Shown here: piece after piece, positions 15,699 to 21,265 of the stretch
Layout: each line of letters starts with the position of its first letter
Numbering within the stretch: the first letter of the stretch is position 1
Assembly: GCA_965238075.1 (NCBI GenBank)
Contig: OZ250173.1
Location: forward strand, 2,048,001-2,112,000
Source: Candidatus Entotheonellaceae bacterium
GTDB taxonomy: Bacteria > Tectomicrobia > Entotheonellia > Entotheonellales > Entotheonellaceae
Length of the DNA: 64,000 nt
Direction of reading: 5' to 3'
Notes under the pieces: generated by a model
Database searches by the model: none
The model's input: only the letters and a program-made list of their open reading frames with translations
Told to the model about the DNA's origin: nothing
Position numbers and translations under genes: made by a program

Positions 15699-16328
15699 TC
15701 ACGATGTCATCGGGCGGCGGGACAGATCGAGGGGAGCCGCGTCGCGGGCTTGAGCGAGCTCGAAGCCGGGTCTGGAGGGCTCCATAAAGGTGATGGCGTC
15801 GTAAAAGTCGTCCAGGGGCACGAACACGCCGTTGCTCTCGGCCCAGCGGCGCATACGCTGATTGCAGGCGTGCACCCAGGACAGAATCTCGATACGCCAA
15901 CCGCGCCGGTGCATGCGCTCGAGGGTGCTGTGAAAACCGGCCCCTTCCAGATAACCGGCGCCGTCGCCGGTGAGCAGGACCACAATGCCGGGATCTCCGT
16001 TGTAGTCCAGGGCGTCTTCGAGCATCCGCAATTGCAAGAGGCGGTCGGGCATTTCCTGTTCACCCCGTTCCCGGCTGCCGCGGTCGAATAATCTGACTTC
16101 AATTCCGTTGCTTTCCATCCGGTTCCAGAGTTGCCGCATCTCCGAAGGCACCGAGCCCACCGCCAAGGCTCGCTCAATGGGCCGGTCCGCGTGCGCCAGC
16201 CGCAGCATGTTGTCAAAGTGCACCCGAATGCGATACCGCGCATTGGGGTCTTCCGAGCGCTCCTCGGCCAAGCGCTGCGCCTCGTGGAAGATGTTCGAGT
16301 TGTCCCAGTACACGAAGATGTGGTCCAT
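15699..16328 (-). CDS. NYN-domain (PIN-like) putative ribonuclease
   Basis: VYWDNSNIF, EQEMPD, VLLTGDG, GWRIEILSW, FVPLD; RBS GAGG. Confidence 0.8.
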   Translation of the reverse strand: MDHIFVYWDNSNIFHEAQRLAEERSEDPNARYRIRVHFDNMLRLAHADRPIERALAVGSVPSEMRQLWNRMESNGIEVRLFDRGSRERGEQEMPDRLLQLRMLEDALDYNGDPGIVVLLTGDGAGYLEGAGFHSTLERMHRRGWRIEILSWVHACNQRMRRWAESNGVFVPLDDFYDAITFMEPSRPGFELAQARDAAPLDLSRRPMTS

Positions 16329-16352
16329 GCCGCCTCACCCTTTGATAAGACG

Positions 16353-19073
16353 CTACCATCTCGTCCGGCGAGCCGCTGTTTCGAGGCGGCGATATGCTGG
16401 AACCTGAACAAGATGCGGCGCAACCTTACGCACCTGAGCAAGTGCATCTCCCAAGTCATAGGGAATGATCGCGTTTTCTGCCTTCTCGACCGTCCGATCA
16501 AGGAGGCGCAATAACGCATTGGCTTTGGCCTCGTCGTCAACTATTGCCAGTTTTGGCACGCCATTCTCGTTCCCATACAACTCATAATCGGACATTGACC
16601 AACAAGCAAACGGCTTGAGAAACCGGTCCACGGTGTCCACAGCTTCGGCGAAGCCACCGCCGGCGATTGCCGGGAGTTTCGCCAATGCATGACTGAGCCC
16701 CGGCGATGTCAGTGAGCGTTCTTGCGGCCAGACGTTTTGCAGGAAAGGCTTGGCCACTGACCGGAATAGTTCCTCCCGCGACGGCAGGTTCGGTTCCTGA
16801 TTGCTCGGTGATGATATCTCACTTACGAAGCGCGTGGTTGCTTCTGCACAGGACGTACGTACCTCTTCGTCGTCCAGTGACCGTATCATTTGCTGGATAC
16901 GGCTGTGCTCGATAGCCGGTTCTCGTTGTTCCCACAGAGCATGAAGGGATTCAACGACCAAGCTGAATGCCAATGAACAACGAGCATCACGATCAAGCTG
17001 GCGGTCCTTGGTCCGCGCTGCCATGTCATCACCAATAATTCCCAGTACGTCCTTGAATTGCGTGCGACAACTGACAGCACGCCAAAGGGCCAGTGCATCC
17101 TCGTTATTCGCACGAAGCGGGCGAATAAGGTGCTCTTGGGTCCATTCTTTGTCAGTGTGTAGGAAGTATCCCAGAAGCTCGATCAGCCGATGCTTGGCAA
17201 TCAATCCAGATCGACCCGAAGCGTTGATGACATGATCTCTCACCATTCGTAAATCGCTGGGATTATCAAATGGCCGAGGATTCTGGGTTAAGTCTGGGCG
17301 GGCAGCCAGGAACACACCAACGAGCTTCCCCGCGGGTGGGTTCAGGGTATCCAGGTCTTGAGGCTCGTCGGCATTGGGCCACACGTTAACATTAAGGTTA
17401 GGTTCTTCATTCGGTGGCTGCCTTGCATTCGTCGTCTCGACAGCCGATGGCCAAGCGCGGAGCCAGACTACGGACCAATTTGGCTGGGCGACAACGTACT
17501 TTTGCCAAGAACTAAGCCAGTGGGTAATGCCTTCGATGGCTTTGGATAGAGTGTCACCGGACAACGTCTCAAGGAGATTAAGCATCCGACGGACGGCTTC
17601 CTTGCCAATTTCCCTTTCTTGATCCGCCGCAGGTGAATGTATCCAACCCAAGCATTCCCAGACCTGCGGGAACTCCGCTCCGCCATTGAGGCTTGATTCC
17701 ATGTCCTTCAAAACCTGCAGAGGGTTATCTTCTTCGCTCAGCCAAGCTCTTGCCCGGCTGGCTGGATCATCATCCAATCCGTGGGACGGGCGTGAGAGTG
17801 CTTGTTCCAACGCTCTCAGCCGATCAGTGCCCGCAAGGAAATCCAGGGAGCGGTCAGGATTTGGGAAGCTGTAACCCACTTTCGGGGCGTTCAAGAACCC
17901 CTCGTCGATTCGATCCATTTCAGCTAAATCGGAGAACCGGCCGATGTTTGATCCCAACCAGGTTTTGTCGCCCCGCGGGAGAGTAGCCCCGGCCACCTCA
18001 ATGCGTCTCAGCTCCCGGACAATCCAGTAGAGGCGAGCCTTCTCAATGTGGTGCACTTCGGCATTCTTAGGCCATGAGTTGCGAGACCGCCCCTTGCGTA
18101 TTCTTTTAGTAATGGCCTTTTGTGCGGCGTTGTCTAATTCGTAGAAACGTCGAGCACGCAGTTCGGCAATTTCCGGGTGGTGATAAACATCCCAGAAGGT
18201 TCCATGGTCTAATTGGAGAAGAAACTCACTTACCTCGGTGGCGGGCGCAATCCGGGAATCACGACAAATTGCCGCCCAGAGTCGCAGATGGATAGGAGAG
18301 ACCGTTTGTTTCCAGCGGCTGACAAAAGCAAGCGCAGCGGAAAAATCGACGTCAGCGAGACGTGAAACGACTGCATGAAGGAGCTTTACCGAGGGGGCAA
18401 TGCCTCGGCCAAATGCATCGGGTTCGTGCTTGTCTTCGTCGGACTTACACTCTGATGCGTAGTACACGCGGCGCAGTAAGAGATGCTCTCGTCCCCTCCA
18501 CCCGATGCGCCTTGCAATATCCAATCCGTGCGCAACCGCGGCATCCAACGCACTGGCCCAAGAAACGAGGAATTCCCCTTCGGTCAGTTGCTCCAAGCCC
18601 AGAAAGGTCGGATTGATCACTTTTCCACTTGTCAGGCTCGCACAAAACATATCGCGGAAGGTTTTGGGACTTTTGGGAAAATTCTGGTATTGGCGAGCGC
18701 GAGACAAGTAGGGTCCAACAACTAACCTTGGTGCGACGAGATCAACAATGACTGAAACAAGGCTGCCGGATCGGTCCCCGCAATGGAATCGTTCTCTGAT
18801 TGTCTTCTGATTCCAACTATCGTCCCTACCAATTGGCTCCTCCCAGCTTTCTTCAATTAAACGCCAAGCGGAACGCCACGGTTCCCTGAGATTTATTCCA
18901 TCCTCTCGATCAAGCCAGTTCAGGATTGCCTGTCGTTTGACGATTTCACTCGGACCGAGACCCACAGCCCATTCGATGGTTTCTTTGTCTTCGAGACGAC
19001 CCTTGAGAAACGCGACTGCACAACGCATTATCTCTTGGTCTCTTACACTCCAAGTCTGCGGAAAGGATCTCAT
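16353..19073 (-). CDS. 906-aa Trp-rich protein resembling the C-terminal region of Dsr1
   Basis: ATG overlaps the SIR2 stop (TGATG); C-terminus PFLQNVWPQERSLTSP...LGDALAQVRKVAPHL...YRRL recalls Dsr1. Confidence 0.7.
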   Translation of the reverse strand: MRSFPQTWSVRDQEIMRCAVAFLKGRLEDKETIEWAVGLGPSEIVKRQAILNWLDREDGINLREPWRSAWRLIEESWEEPIGRDDSWNQKTIRERFHCGDRSGSLVSVIVDLVAPRLVVGPYLSRARQYQNFPKSPKTFRDMFCASLTSGKVINPTFLGLEQLTEGEFLVSWASALDAAVAHGLDIARRIGWRGREHLLLRRVYYASECKSDEDKHEPDAFGRGIAPSVKLLHAVVSRLADVDFSAALAFVSRWKQTVSPIHLRLWAAICRDSRIAPATEVSEFLLQLDHGTFWDVYHHPEIAELRARRFYELDNAAQKAITKRIRKGRSRNSWPKNAEVHHIEKARLYWIVRELRRIEVAGATLPRGDKTWLGSNIGRFSDLAEMDRIDEGFLNAPKVGYSFPNPDRSLDFLAGTDRLRALEQALSRPSHGLDDDPASRARAWLSEEDNPLQVLKDMESSLNGGAEFPQVWECLGWIHSPAADQEREIGKEAVRRMLNLLETLSGDTLSKAIEGITHWLSSWQKYVVAQPNWSVVWLRAWPSAVETTNARQPPNEEPNLNVNVWPNADEPQDLDTLNPPAGKLVGVFLAARPDLTQNPRPFDNPSDLRMVRDHVINASGRSGLIAKHRLIELLGYFLHTDKEWTQEHLIRPLRANNEDALALWRAVSCRTQFKDVLGIIGDDMAARTKDRQLDRDARCSLAFSLVVESLHALWEQREPAIEHSRIQQMIRSLDDEEVRTSCAEATTRFVSEISSPSNQEPNLPSREELFRSVAKPFLQNVWPQERSLTSPGLSHALAKLPAIAGGGFAEAVDTVDRFLKPFACWSMSDYELYGNENGVPKLAIVDDEAKANALLRLLDRTVEKAENAIIPYDLGDALAQVRKVAPHLVQVPAYRRLETAARRTRW

Positions 19074-20269
19074 CAGCGAGCCCTTTGGCCTACCTGCGAC
19101 GACGCTTCCACGATAGCGTCGAGCCAACCCAGGTCCGCGTTGTGTTTGGAAACCAGAGATGACAAGCGAAGGCGTTCGCTTGGCTCGCTTCGACGGATGA
19201 TATGGTCGAATAAATCACGCTCTTCGTCGTTGGCCCCCGTCCTTCTTGCCCTTACGATATTCTTCATTTCTCGGTCGATACGGCTTCTCTTTCCATTGAT
19301 GGCCGAGAATTCAGCCCATTGGACCAGTGTACGTGTCAACTGAGAATGGTCATTACTTGGGCTTTCGTACCGTATCGGCGTGATGCCACGATCCCTCCAA
19401 TCCTCCAATGTTACGGGATCGTCCTCATCCATTCCCACGAATACGAATCGTTCCTTGAGGTCAGGAAAGCGGGCCACATCCGCAGCCACGGCGTTAAGCA
19501 GATATCTCATTGGTGGATCGTTTGCGCTGTAGCCTACAAAGACCAAGTTATACAGGCGGGTGGCGTCGTAGATCAGATCGGGAACGATTCGCCGGCGGAA
19601 ATAGTATTCGCCGAAGTCCTGATCGGAAATAATCAAATCGGCACTTCGCTTAGGATTTCGGTCCAAGGCGCCATGGATGTGCAGTACGCCTTTGAATTCT
19701 GGCCTGCGGGTTGGCCTAGGTATTCCCCCAAGTGCGTATGTCTCGACCGATTGCCTCATAGCCCGCGCGGCGCTTTCAAGGAGGAGATCGAAATTCGTCG
19801 TGATGATCGCCGATGCCCCACCGCGGTCGGCAAGGCGCATCAATGCTCGATGAATTGAAGCCGGTTTAGCCCCGGCACGGAGGATCGTTCCAATTTTCTC
19901 CCTAACCGGACTCCCTCCAGTGTTTCCTTCAACTCCCTGCTCAAGCCTCCGCTCAAGCATTCCCAAAACGACATCGTATTCGTCTTGTTGGAAACGCTTA
20001 ATCTCCGCTTTTTGTCCATCATTCAAGTTAGATAAGTCAGTGTTGTGTCCATTATGCGAAATAACGGAATACACTCCCAAATCCAGCGCTTCGTACACTT
20101 TTACGACGAGTTCACGGAAGTTGGGCAACCCTGCGGACATTGAAACGCCAGCGCCTGCGACGAAGAGAACCTCGCCTCGTGCATGGGCGAGGAGCAGACG
20201 CTCTGGAATCCGTGCGGCTGATTGCCCCAGCATAATAGCTCTGCTGTCGATGTCTGGAGGTTGGTTCAT
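19073..20269 (-). CDS. Defence-type SIR2 NADase domain protein (Dsr1 N-terminus-like)
   Basis: IPERLLLAHARGEVLFVAGAGVS, TTNFD, LHIHG, DFGEYY, FVGYSANDPPMRY; lacks the CobB zinc cysteines. Confidence 0.85.
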   Translation of the reverse strand: MNQPPDIDSRAIMLGQSAARIPERLLLAHARGEVLFVAGAGVSMSAGLPNFRELVVKVYEALDLGVYSVISHNGHNTDLSNLNDGQKAEIKRFQQDEYDVVLGMLERRLEQGVEGNTGGSPVREKIGTILRAGAKPASIHRALMRLADRGGASAIITTNFDLLLESAARAMRQSVETYALGGIPRPTRRPEFKGVLHIHGALDRNPKRSADLIISDQDFGEYYFRRRIVPDLIYDATRLYNLVFVGYSANDPPMRYLLNAVAADVARFPDLKERFVFVGMDEDDPVTLEDWRDRGITPIRYESPSNDHSQLTRTLVQWAEFSAINGKRSRIDREMKNIVRARRTGANDEERDLFDHIIRRSEPSERLRLSSLVSKHNADLGWLDAIVEASSQVGQRAR

Positions 20270-20404
20270 GGACGTGCCCGCGCCTGCGGTGGAGCAAAAA
20301 CACCGGCCCGCTTGAGTTTATCGCTTCTGCATTTTGGCGATTGTCAGATCTGTATTGTCAACAGATCAAGGAGTTGAAAGGTATAAATTTTCGGATCAGG
20401 ACGC

Positions 20405-21265
20405 TTATCGCGTCCAGGGATGCGGCAGGCCGGGTATTTTGCTGCGCAGGGTGTAGACGGAGGTTCGTGCCGTGAAGAACATCGTCTGCCGGTCGGGGCC
20501 GCCGAACAGCAGATTCGCCGGGATCTCCGGGGTGCGAATGATGCCCAGCCGGGTGCCGTCGGGAGCGAAGACCCAGGTGCCGCCCGGACCGGTGCAGTAG
20601 ACGTTGCCTTCCACGTCCACCTTCATGCCGTCCGGCACGCCATCGGACTCCACGGACGACATGTCGGCGAAAATCTGCCGACGCACCATGAGACCATCTG
20701 CCCCGATTTCGATGGCGTGAATGTAGGCTCCCCAGCGCGTATTGGAGACGTATAGGGTTTTCTCGTCGGGCGAAAAGGCCAGACCGTTCGGATACTCACA
20801 GTCCGCCACCAGGGTCATGGCGCCGTCGGGCGCGATCCGGTAAACCCCCGAATAGGGGCATTCGCGCTCTGCGAAGGGGACGCGCAAGCCGGGGTCGGTG
20901 AAATAGATGCTGCCGTCCGAGGCGCACACCACGTCATTGGGCCGGTTCAGGCGCCGACCCTCATAGCGCTCGGCAACCGTCTCGACTTGGCTATCGGCTG
21001 TCATGCGGGTGACCCGGCGGTTACCGCCTTCGCACATGAGCAGGCGGCCTTGCAGGTCGAACGTCGTGCCGTTGCCTTCGCCGGTGTTCTCACGCACCGT
21101 TTCCGGTGGCTGTCCCGGGACCAGGCGGTGCAGCCGGTTGTTGGGCAGGTCCACGAAATAGTAAAAGCCGTCGGGATGCCAGGTCGGCCCTTCCGTAAAG
21201 GCAAATCCCGTGGCCAACTGCTCGGCTTCCGTCGTTGCCAGAATCCTGCTGAGCGGATCACCCAT
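20405..21265 (-). CDS. SMP-30/gluconolactonase family protein
   Basis: FTEGPTW, NRPND, PNGLAFSPDE, PDGMKVD. Confidence 0.9.
   Translation of the reverse strand: MGDPLSRILATTEAEQLATGFAFTEGPTWHPDGFYYFVDLPNNRLHRLVPGQPPETVRENTGEGNGTTFDLQGRLLMCEGGNRRVTRMTADSQVETVAERYEGRRLNRPNDVVCASDGSIYFTDPGLRVPFAERECPYSGVYRIAPDGAMTLVADCEYPNGLAFSPDEKTLYVSNTRWGAYIHAIEIGADGLMVRRQIFADMSSVESDGVPDGMKVDVEGNVYCTGPGGTWVFAPDGTRLGIIRTPEIPANLLFGGPDRQTMFFTARTSVYTLRSKIPGLPHPWTR

Follow-up and report, generated by a model that had tools for sequence, protein, structure and literature searches.

A stretch of 64,000 nucleotides from a Candidatus Entotheonellaceae bacterium (GenBank assembly GCA_965238075.1, contig OZ250173.1, positions 2,048,001 to 2,112,000 of the forward strand; hereafter the window, position 1 being its first letter) carries two overlapping minus-strand genes that quite probably constitute a two-protein Dsr1-like anti-phage sirtuin, located on an acquired island of 4.07 kb that holds nothing else. 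The SIR2, or effector, gene (19073..20269, with an ATG start in the open reading frame (ORF) listing) encodes a chain of 398 amino acids (aa; P0001), and the gene behind it (16353..19073) encodes the putative sensor, an all-alpha solenoid of 906 aa (P0002) when translated from the ATG at 19073-19071. The two are joined by a TGATG stop/start overlap (19071..19075), read as cgcTGATGaga, in which the TGA of the SIR2 gene (19075-19073) and the ATG of the sensor gene have one A in common, and a Shine-Dalgarno-like word, AAGGG (19081..19085), lies 7 nt 5' of this ATG within the end of the SIR2 gene. The sensor frame is listed as 16353..19127 (minus strand, 924 aa from a TTG), of which the ATG start leaves 906 aa; the database gene call (P0003, 891 aa) begins at Met16, downstream of residues 11-15. 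Much of this anatomy had been described in an earlier reading of the same DNA from its letters alone (the original prediction), and its elements were recovered here: the overlap joining the two frames, the intact SIR2 motifs of the 398-aa product (GAGVS at 39, TTNFD at 157, HIHG at 197, VGYS at 245), the tryptophan-rich character of the 906-aa product (30 Trp, or 3.3%), and the lack of a zinc finger or zinc module in P0001, since that protein contains 0 Cys. Residues G39, A40, G41, S43, T157, T158, N159, F160, H197, I198, H199 and G200 are invariant in 39/39 aligned rows. Asn159 of TTNFD (codon at 19793..19795, minus strand) and His199 of HIHG (codon at 19673..19675, minus strand), which we take to be the catalytic residues, as in SIR2 NADases, are also conserved to at least 98% in an alignment of 49 rows.

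Both proteins are related to Dsr1, a single-chain defense NADase family, as the original prediction had proposed when it likened the first ORF to the Dsr1 N-terminus and the second to its C-terminal part. Pfam identifies SIR2_2 (PF13289) in P0001 (E 1.8e-20) and no domain in P0002, and the NCBIfam Dsr1 model (NF041818, 1263 positions) matches P0001 over positions 9-299 (E 1.4e-56, 192 bits) and P0002 over positions 646-1263 (E 7.5e-26, 90 bits). Dsr1 is likewise the best PADLOC family for both (1e-44 for P0001, 4.8e-16 for P0002), and for P0002 it is the sole PADLOC match. Profile-profile comparison by hhalign of the two family alignments (A5, A1) with one built from 12 Dsr1 proteins (A4), of which the four scored on NF041818 gave 1736-1942 bits in three cases and 1308 bits, below the 1400 cut-off, in that of P0199, aligned P0001 residues 19-331 with Dsr1 8-301 (probability 100%, E 3e-54, 35% identity) and P0002 residues 16-906 with Dsr1 410-1262 (probability 99.85%, E 1.2e-30, 811 columns, 18% identity). 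The 906-aa protein thus does have Dsr1 similarity, and the two genes together cover the whole of Dsr1, with the break just past the enzyme part; beyond its Dsr1-matching part, P0001 has a C-terminal helical extension. The C-terminal motifs named in the original prediction are present, but their spacings were off by one or two residues. The resemblance to Dsr1 therefore extends to the N-terminal SIR2_2 NADase-type domain with GAGxS, TTNFD and HxHG, to a large helical sensor homologous over its whole length, to the order of the parts and to total size (398 + 906 = 1304 aa vs ~1262 aa). However, where Dsr1 is one polypeptide of ~1260 aa, the present protein is divided into two ORFs by the TGATG overlap, its 192 and 90 bits fall far short of the whole-protein cut-off of 1400, and the segment at the break is unalignable. 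Fused members of the same close clade also stay at 228-318 bits with NF041818, while canonical Dsr1 reaches 1736-1942. With scores so far under the cut-off, the clade, fused or split, lies outside NCBI's Dsr1 equivalog and is hence called a Dsr1-like sister group.

The split recurs across genomes. Sensor relatives number 699 at E <= 0.001 in a 90%-clustered collection, and among the best 120 of these, 118 are proteins of 761-930 aa without a Pfam domain and two are proteins of 1292-1305 aa with SIR2_2. A scan of genome contigs, one genome per species, in which a single-protein query gave no match and an alignment query gave the loci, returned 219 pattern matches and 147 confirmed relatives, the best 80 of which were kept and represent 57 distinct loci. 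By record title these belong to Pseudomonadota (35), Latescibacterota (6), Nitrospirota (6), Thermodesulfobacteriota (3), Planctomycetota (3), Hydrogenedentota (1) and an archaeal (Methanosarcinales) metagenome-assembled genome (MAG; 1), with 2 unplaced, so that at least seven phyla are represented. A SIR2 gene lies directly upstream of the sensor in 54 of the 57, the other three (L030, L048, L056) having a partial sensor only and no SIR2 gene. At the 54 junctions, 35 show a 4-nt overlap (ATGA 29, GTGA 5, TTGA 1) and 15 a 1-nt overlap (TGATG 11, TAGTG 4), while one is an open frame throughout (L038) and three are irregular (L018, L035, L045); homologues are accordingly split at the same point by a stop/start overlap in 50/54 loci. 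The sensor occupies the -1 frame relative to SIR2 in all 50 overlapping junctions of both types, which point changes could interconvert, since L011 has both at once (cgtTGATGaga). A G-rich Shine-Dalgarno-like word is found at -16..-5 of the sensor start in 45/51 junctions, compared with 15% of 2,500 control positions drawn from within those SIR2 genes, and the core words GGAG, GAGG or AGGA in 25/51, compared with 7.9% of controls. Thirty-eight loci, at 45-71% identity, retain the two ORFs in full length. Across 39 genomes, the distance matrices of the two proteins are strongly correlated (r 0.905), a value equalled in 0/2,000 permutations; the sensor diverges faster than the SIR2 chain (mean distance 0.468 vs 0.345), and conservation windows revealed no hypervariable block in it.

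Independent sequencing likewise shows the split and not one fused ORF. Run X2, which belongs to another study and is perhaps of the same strain, has a contig that matches 16300-19807 with no difference and no gap and reproduces the TGATG exactly, so the junction is no assembly slip of this record. In run X7, a contig of 12.7 kb spans 16413-20450; it is ~91% identical, has 15 gaps, each gap group totaling three or a multiple of three, and leaves the junction untouched. This ~91% variant, seen also in X11 and X13, matches only to 16413, ~60 nt before the sensor stop codon, and its C-terminus or downstream context consequently differs from that of the window. Contigs of two metatranscriptome libraries (X11, X13) match the beginning of the SIR2 gene and portions of the sensor gene, at most a hint of expression. 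The recurring overlap, the Shine-Dalgarno-like motif, the co-divergence of the two proteins, the 118 stand-alone sensors among the best 120 and the identical junction in an independent run strongly support the proposal, made in the original prediction, of an evolved split in preference to a chance frameshift. The overlap further suggests that the two chains may be produced in a ratio of about 1:1.

The split forms are interspersed with fused ones. Longer relatives of the SIR2 chain comprise 125 proteins, ~70 of them of 1200-1350 aa at 40-63% identity, whereas canonical Dsr1 proteins so named by NCBI (e.g., P0211) have ~33% identity to that chain. Fused Dsr1-like proteins of this sister clade (P0039, 1292 aa; P0118, 1305 aa; P0128, 1313 aa), annotated as "SIR2 family protein" or "hypothetical," reach up to 63% identity to the sensor and possess the same helices on either side of the break (..ADLGWLDAI before, ..AFLxGRLEE..TIEWAL after), but as one chain, with a variable 10-25-residue linker where the window has the stop/start overlap. 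Fusion among close homologues, which the original prediction had set against itself, was found for a minority (P0039 at 63% identity, P0118 and L038) and not for most. Trees of the sensor part by FastTree (133 rows: 57 split, 66 fused, 10 Dsr1 outgroup) and by IQ-TREE (LG+G4, short search; 91 rows: 47 split, 38 of them genome loci, 38 fused, 6 outgroup) agree. With Dsr1 as the root, the first branches are four clades of fused rows only (24 rows in IQ-TREE), and every split row belongs to a single crown clade that includes 14 fused rows (Shimodaira-Hasegawa-like approximate likelihood ratio test, SH-aLRT, 90). At least nine changes of architecture are needed, six of them forced by well-supported branches, and a constraint holding the 47 split rows together, apart from the fused, was rejected (log-likelihood difference 1296, approximately unbiased test p 2e-51), so the covalent link has either disappeared and come back or disappeared on several occasions. 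We favor one early fission followed by re-fusions, because every split locus has the same junction position and frame offset, because an in-frame Met persists at the split start in some fused forms of the crown (P0118 ..REPPLMRPRWANL; L038 ..AQFMIPPWATL, which also retains a GGAG-rich word before that Met), and because aligned basal fused forms have no Met there (P0123 ..AAVTRSWAGL). Against this direction, the nested fused P0124 and P0134 are without the Met, and single MAG records such as L038 possibly contain an indel error. Canonical Dsr1 is nearly always one chain, as 114 of the best 120 relatives of its sensor part have a SIR2 domain; the other six are irregular proteins of 872-1040 aa, five of them on contigs of 3-5.5 kb.

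Structure prediction points to an association of the two chains. The AlphaFold2 model of the sensor is an all-helical solenoid (mean predicted local distance difference test score (pLDDT) 75.8, predicted template modeling score (pTM) 0.53, with residues 100-226 and 553-577 of low confidence) for which Foldseek returned generic HEAT/ARM solenoids only (karyopherins, CRM1, SF3B1, CAND1; template modeling score 0.2-0.3); no solved relative was found in the PDB by sequence or profile search. The SIR2-chain model (pLDDT 65.6, with confident C-terminal helices at 309-397) has its best fold matches in KomC, DSR2, ThsA, the SPARSA SIR2 and FAM118B, all called defense NADases, although these matches weigh little because the model is of low confidence. 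Co-folding of the full-length SIR2 chain with residues 1-600 of the sensor, from 39-row alignments in the same genome order, gave an interface score (ipSAE) of 0.73 (runs 0.75, 0.72 and 0.73), as opposed to 0.24 for the best of three controls, in a kind of test that the halves of split genes tend to pass. The ipSAE mark applied is reached by 116/157 solved complexes and 2/215 mismatched pairs, a calibration that is rough here, our own alignments having been used. The runs showed 100% contact agreement, with partner pLDDT at least 77, and memory of a solved complex is an unlikely source of the result, as a sequence search of the PDB turned up no structure of Dsr1. Binding between the two chains is in this way supported, with the C-terminal helices of the SIR2 chain (residues 363-393; 19091..19183, minus strand; confident in the single-chain model; E365, A378 and W382 invariant) predicted to dock on the N-terminal helices of the sensor (residues 11-46; 18936..19043, minus strand; F22, R26, L27 and W35 invariant) around the invariant F22. 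Since this interface uses sensor residues 11-15, the overlapping ATG is favored over the Met16 start.

The pair resides on an inserted island (16340..20405). The guanine-plus-cytosine content is 0.51-0.57 over 16250-20500 and 0.62-0.71 in the flanks, in agreement with the lower-GC islet noted in the original prediction. Of the neighbors given there, the gluconolactonase gene was confirmed, but the left neighbor is a gene for an NYN-domain (PF01936) protein of 209 aa (15699-16328, minus strand), and panC is one gene further out. In four same-genus genomes (G001, G002, G003 and G005) the NYN and gluconolactonase genes adjoin, 57-65 bp apart and at 89-97% identity to the window flanks, and in the window this spacer is replaced by ~4.07 kb (roughly 16340-20405) comprising the two genes and ~135 bp upstream of them; as the site is empty in those four, the island carries only these two genes. 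The sensor was found in none of five same-genus genomes. In the fifth, G004 (C1:2057940-2061862), the arrangement is different, the left flank matching only to query position 2284 and the right flank being partly missing, and the insertion site thus varies within the genus. Horizontal acquisition is the best explanation for the island; neither an integrase nor a clear target duplication was found in the insert. The NYN gene starts 24 nt past the sensor stop on the same strand, so that read-through from the island into it is possible. It was considered as a third component and rejected, having no homologue at any of the 57 loci and being native to the genus, with ~90% identity in relatives. Across the 57 loci there is no conserved third gene, the best flank cluster occurring in 5, and, the NYN gene being native, the module is best seen as a self-contained two-gene unit that moves between genomes. 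The non-coding part upstream of the SIR2 gene (20270..20405, minus strand) is read as the presumed promoter region and contains, at 20340-20370, a CAGATCTG palindrome between two TTGTCA words (minus-strand TTGACA, e.g., 20360-20355); palindrome and words could represent a candidate promoter and operator.

Elsewhere, the pair is in part found with known defense genes. In a PADLOC sample of 100 of 219 flank ORFs (at least 200 aa) from 26 loci, at E <= 1e-15, hits beside the pair occurred in 9/26 loci and comprised HmaB/HmaC, type IIG restriction-modification, HEC-01, PDC-M38, PDC-S35, mad3, PDC-S49, an RmuC-like gene and a canonical Dsr1. The last is in Candidatus Foliamicus (L009:8873-12671), where it lies ~1.2 kb downstream of a split Dsr1-like pair, so that both Dsr1 types share one island with a type IIG restriction-modification gene and PDC-S35; this canonical Dsr1 scores 981 bits over PADLOC model positions 1-840 and then 395 bits over 830-1274, and has itself come apart into two ORFs, of 833 and 473 aa, that overlap. 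In Latescibacterota (L004:818-12096; also L005, L006 and L048) the pair is inside or beside an Hma-type system, with the HmaB methylase encoded immediately 5' of it and, in L004, HmaC on its 3' side; at L048 it is reduced to a sensor remnant (residues 660-906) behind a DNA methylase gene. A HATPase_c_4 gene follows the sensor by ~30 nt in L003, L005 and L006, and in the latter two this gene has a Schlafen AlbA_2 domain as well. In two alphaproteobacterial MAGs (L028:3092-4263, L057:3200-4407) the SIR2 gene is broken by ~1.2 kb, which in L028 includes a 279-aa ORF on the opposite strand and which may be an insertion sequence. A Hyphomicrobium MAG (L030:83-7074) has a decayed copy, with sensor residues 217-903 only, in two frames, after a 1598-aa RTX-repeat protein. 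The pair of the Methanosarcinales archaeon MAG (L007, a 6.2-kb contig) is nested in the tree among bacterial sequences, its nearest rows being P0118 and P0114, and represents either a cross-domain transfer or a binning error.

These data allow a mechanism to be put forward for the two-protein Dsr1-like system, in which the anti-phage role, the NADase activity and the phage-protein trigger are extrapolated from the family. The SIR2 and sensor genes would be co-transcribed from the island's own upstream region, and translation of the second would be coupled to that of the first through the overlap and the internal ribosome-binding-like word, a step that conservation supports. The two chains are then predicted to assemble non-covalently, residues ~363-393 of the SIR2 chain on residues ~11-46 of the sensor, rebuilding a "neck" that is continuous in the one-chain relatives. 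By homology to E. coli Dsr1, the alpha-solenoid sensor may bind a phage protein, possibly the major capsid protein, and, as judged from distant relatives, binding would turn on the SIR2 NADase at Asn159 and His199, such that NAD+ falls and phage replication is blocked. Tested examples of Dsr1 include a DSR1 cloned into B. subtilis, for which transient NAD+ depletion in phi29 infection, with the culture not collapsing, is described in a preprint (Garb et al.), and E. coli EcDsr1, of which the phage ZL19 major capsid protein is given as the unique activator (PMC13581612).

It is alternatively conceivable, though unlikely, that the break is itself functional, with the SIR2 chain leaving the phage-bound sensor to form an active oligomer or filament, or with one sensor serving exchangeable effectors; if so, the split clade would have a route of activation that is closed to one-chain Dsr1. 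Quite unlikely, in our estimation, is an arrangement resembling a toxin-antitoxin system, in which the SIR2 chain, when free, would have NADase activity, possibly in filament form, and would be kept in check by the sensor as a stoichiometric inhibitor, to be freed once a phage protein binds the sensor or the sensor supply fails. Separate chains with coupled translation do recall toxin-antitoxin genetics, the fold matches of the low-confidence SIR2 model include the filament-forming NADases KomC, BcThsA and FAM118B, and the two chains are predicted to touch through a small terminal bundle of helices, which could separate. However, a single clade shows repeated conversion between the fused and the split state, so the covalent link appears functionally near-irrelevant and release not required, and the effector-then-partner order and the sizes match Dsr1. 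We consider it very improbable that programmed -1 ribosomal frameshifting at the overlap produces one Dsr1-like polypeptide from genes that are split at the DNA level only. This would suit the uniform -1 frame of the sensor and the functional one-chain relatives in the wider family, but no -1 slippery heptamer (X XXY YYZ) occurs within the 3'-terminal 90 nt of the SIR2 gene in any of 50 loci (0/50), the junction sequences differ widely, and frameshifting would need neither the start codon present at the overlap in 50/54 nor the Shine-Dalgarno-like motif in 45/51. That the pair is a decaying, non-functional Dsr1 pseudogene broken by a frameshift is scarcely credible and already contradicted: a one-base indel would suffice to convert fused into split, and damaged relatives exist (frame changes in L019, L028, L043, L047 and L057; remnants in L030 and L048), but both ORFs are full length here as in the 38 loci, the presumed catalytic residues are invariant, the indels of the 91% variant are all in frame, the two genes co-diverge and the sensor stands alone in nearly all of its best relatives. 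Equally hard to credit is a role outside defense, such as NAD-dependent deacylation of proteins by an enzyme on a large regulatory scaffold, which the housekeeping neighbors here and the loci without known defense neighbors would accommodate, but against which stand the missing zinc module of protein deacylases, the best family matches of the SIR2 chain to defense NADases, and a patchy, horizontally transferred distribution over at least seven phyla that includes Hma and restriction-modification islands at several loci.

Several observations weigh against the interpretation of the pair as a two-protein Dsr1-like defense system. The ~80 residues at the break (P0001 332-398 and P0002 1-15) have no detectable similarity to Dsr1 302-409 in the profile alignment. 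The relation to tested Dsr1 is distant (18% identity in the sensor; 228-318 bits in fused relatives, against 1400), and because of this distance the trigger, and even the outcome, may differ from those of Dsr1. The structural models are moderate, in view of the pLDDT of the SIR2 chain and the pTM of the sensor. Here the pair stands alone among housekeeping genes and not in a defense island, and 17 of the 26 sampled loci have no PADLOC neighbor at the threshold used. A consensus scan of 20270-20405 found no promoter. In addition, none of the RNA-library contigs spans the junction, parts of the stretch are uncovered by them, and DNA carry-over is possible.

Among described systems, DSR2 (8k98, 8wy8) resembles the pair in coupling a SIR2 NADase head to a helical sensor, which in DSR2 recognizes a structural protein of the phage, and the SIR2 folds match weakly. 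However, DSR2 is a single chain, P0002 has no sequence match to it in PADLOC or the PDB, and DSR2-type middle and C-terminal (tail-tube-binding) domains were not recognized. Avs7, which according to PMC13581612 has a helical sensor type, bilobed and sharply bent in SeAvs7, in common with Dsr1 and recognizes phage major capsid proteins, differs in that no STAND NTPase is present here, and kinship with it would run through Dsr1 homology and the statement in that source only. In SIR2-HerA, SPARSA (SIR2-APAZ/pAgo) and Thoeris (ThsA/ThsB) a SIR2 NADase effector also acts beside a separate partner protein, but the partner here is neither HerA, pAgo nor a TIR protein, but a Dsr1-type sensor. No HerA or pAgo gene neighbors the pair in the window and none is conserved across the 57 loci. 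Of the SLOG/STALD sensor domain of ThsA and the TIR-domain ThsB neighbor that mark Thoeris, neither was found: ThsA models match P0001 only at residues 120-265, and the neighboring genes are those for the NYN protein and gluconolactonase; in PADLOC, the ThsA and Ago-associated SIR2 models match the SIR2 core alone and far more weakly than Dsr1 does. A full-text literature search yielded no published description of a two-gene Dsr1. The methods of PMC13581612 (2026) mention "split proteins" among Dsr1/Avs7-type sensors, undescribed there, from which it appears that its authors met split sensors of this type; the words "split," "Dsr1" and "SIR2" are absent from seven supplementary files of that article, and Supplementary Table 8 may contain the clade. 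The split form is real, widespread and unannotated, and in principle unsurprising: what the original prediction called a candidate undescribed system is no new kind of system, being a split variant in the sister clade of a named family.

Dsr1 is still termed "poorly characterized" (Sci Adv 2026), and the natural two-chain form marks the boundary between effector and sensor and predicts the helices that join the two parts. It also provides an experimental handle, as the halves may be expressed singly or swapped between clades, the docking helices cut, or the two genes re-fused by a change of one base. Where the sensor genes are named in the sources, it is as "hypothetical protein," and with scores far under the curated Dsr1 cut-off this amounts to a gap in annotation, from which we infer that single-gene Dsr1 rules in defense finders miss the clade. 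For the family itself, the repeated switching between fused and split forms offers a clean case of how the gene of an immune protein can undergo fission and fusion.

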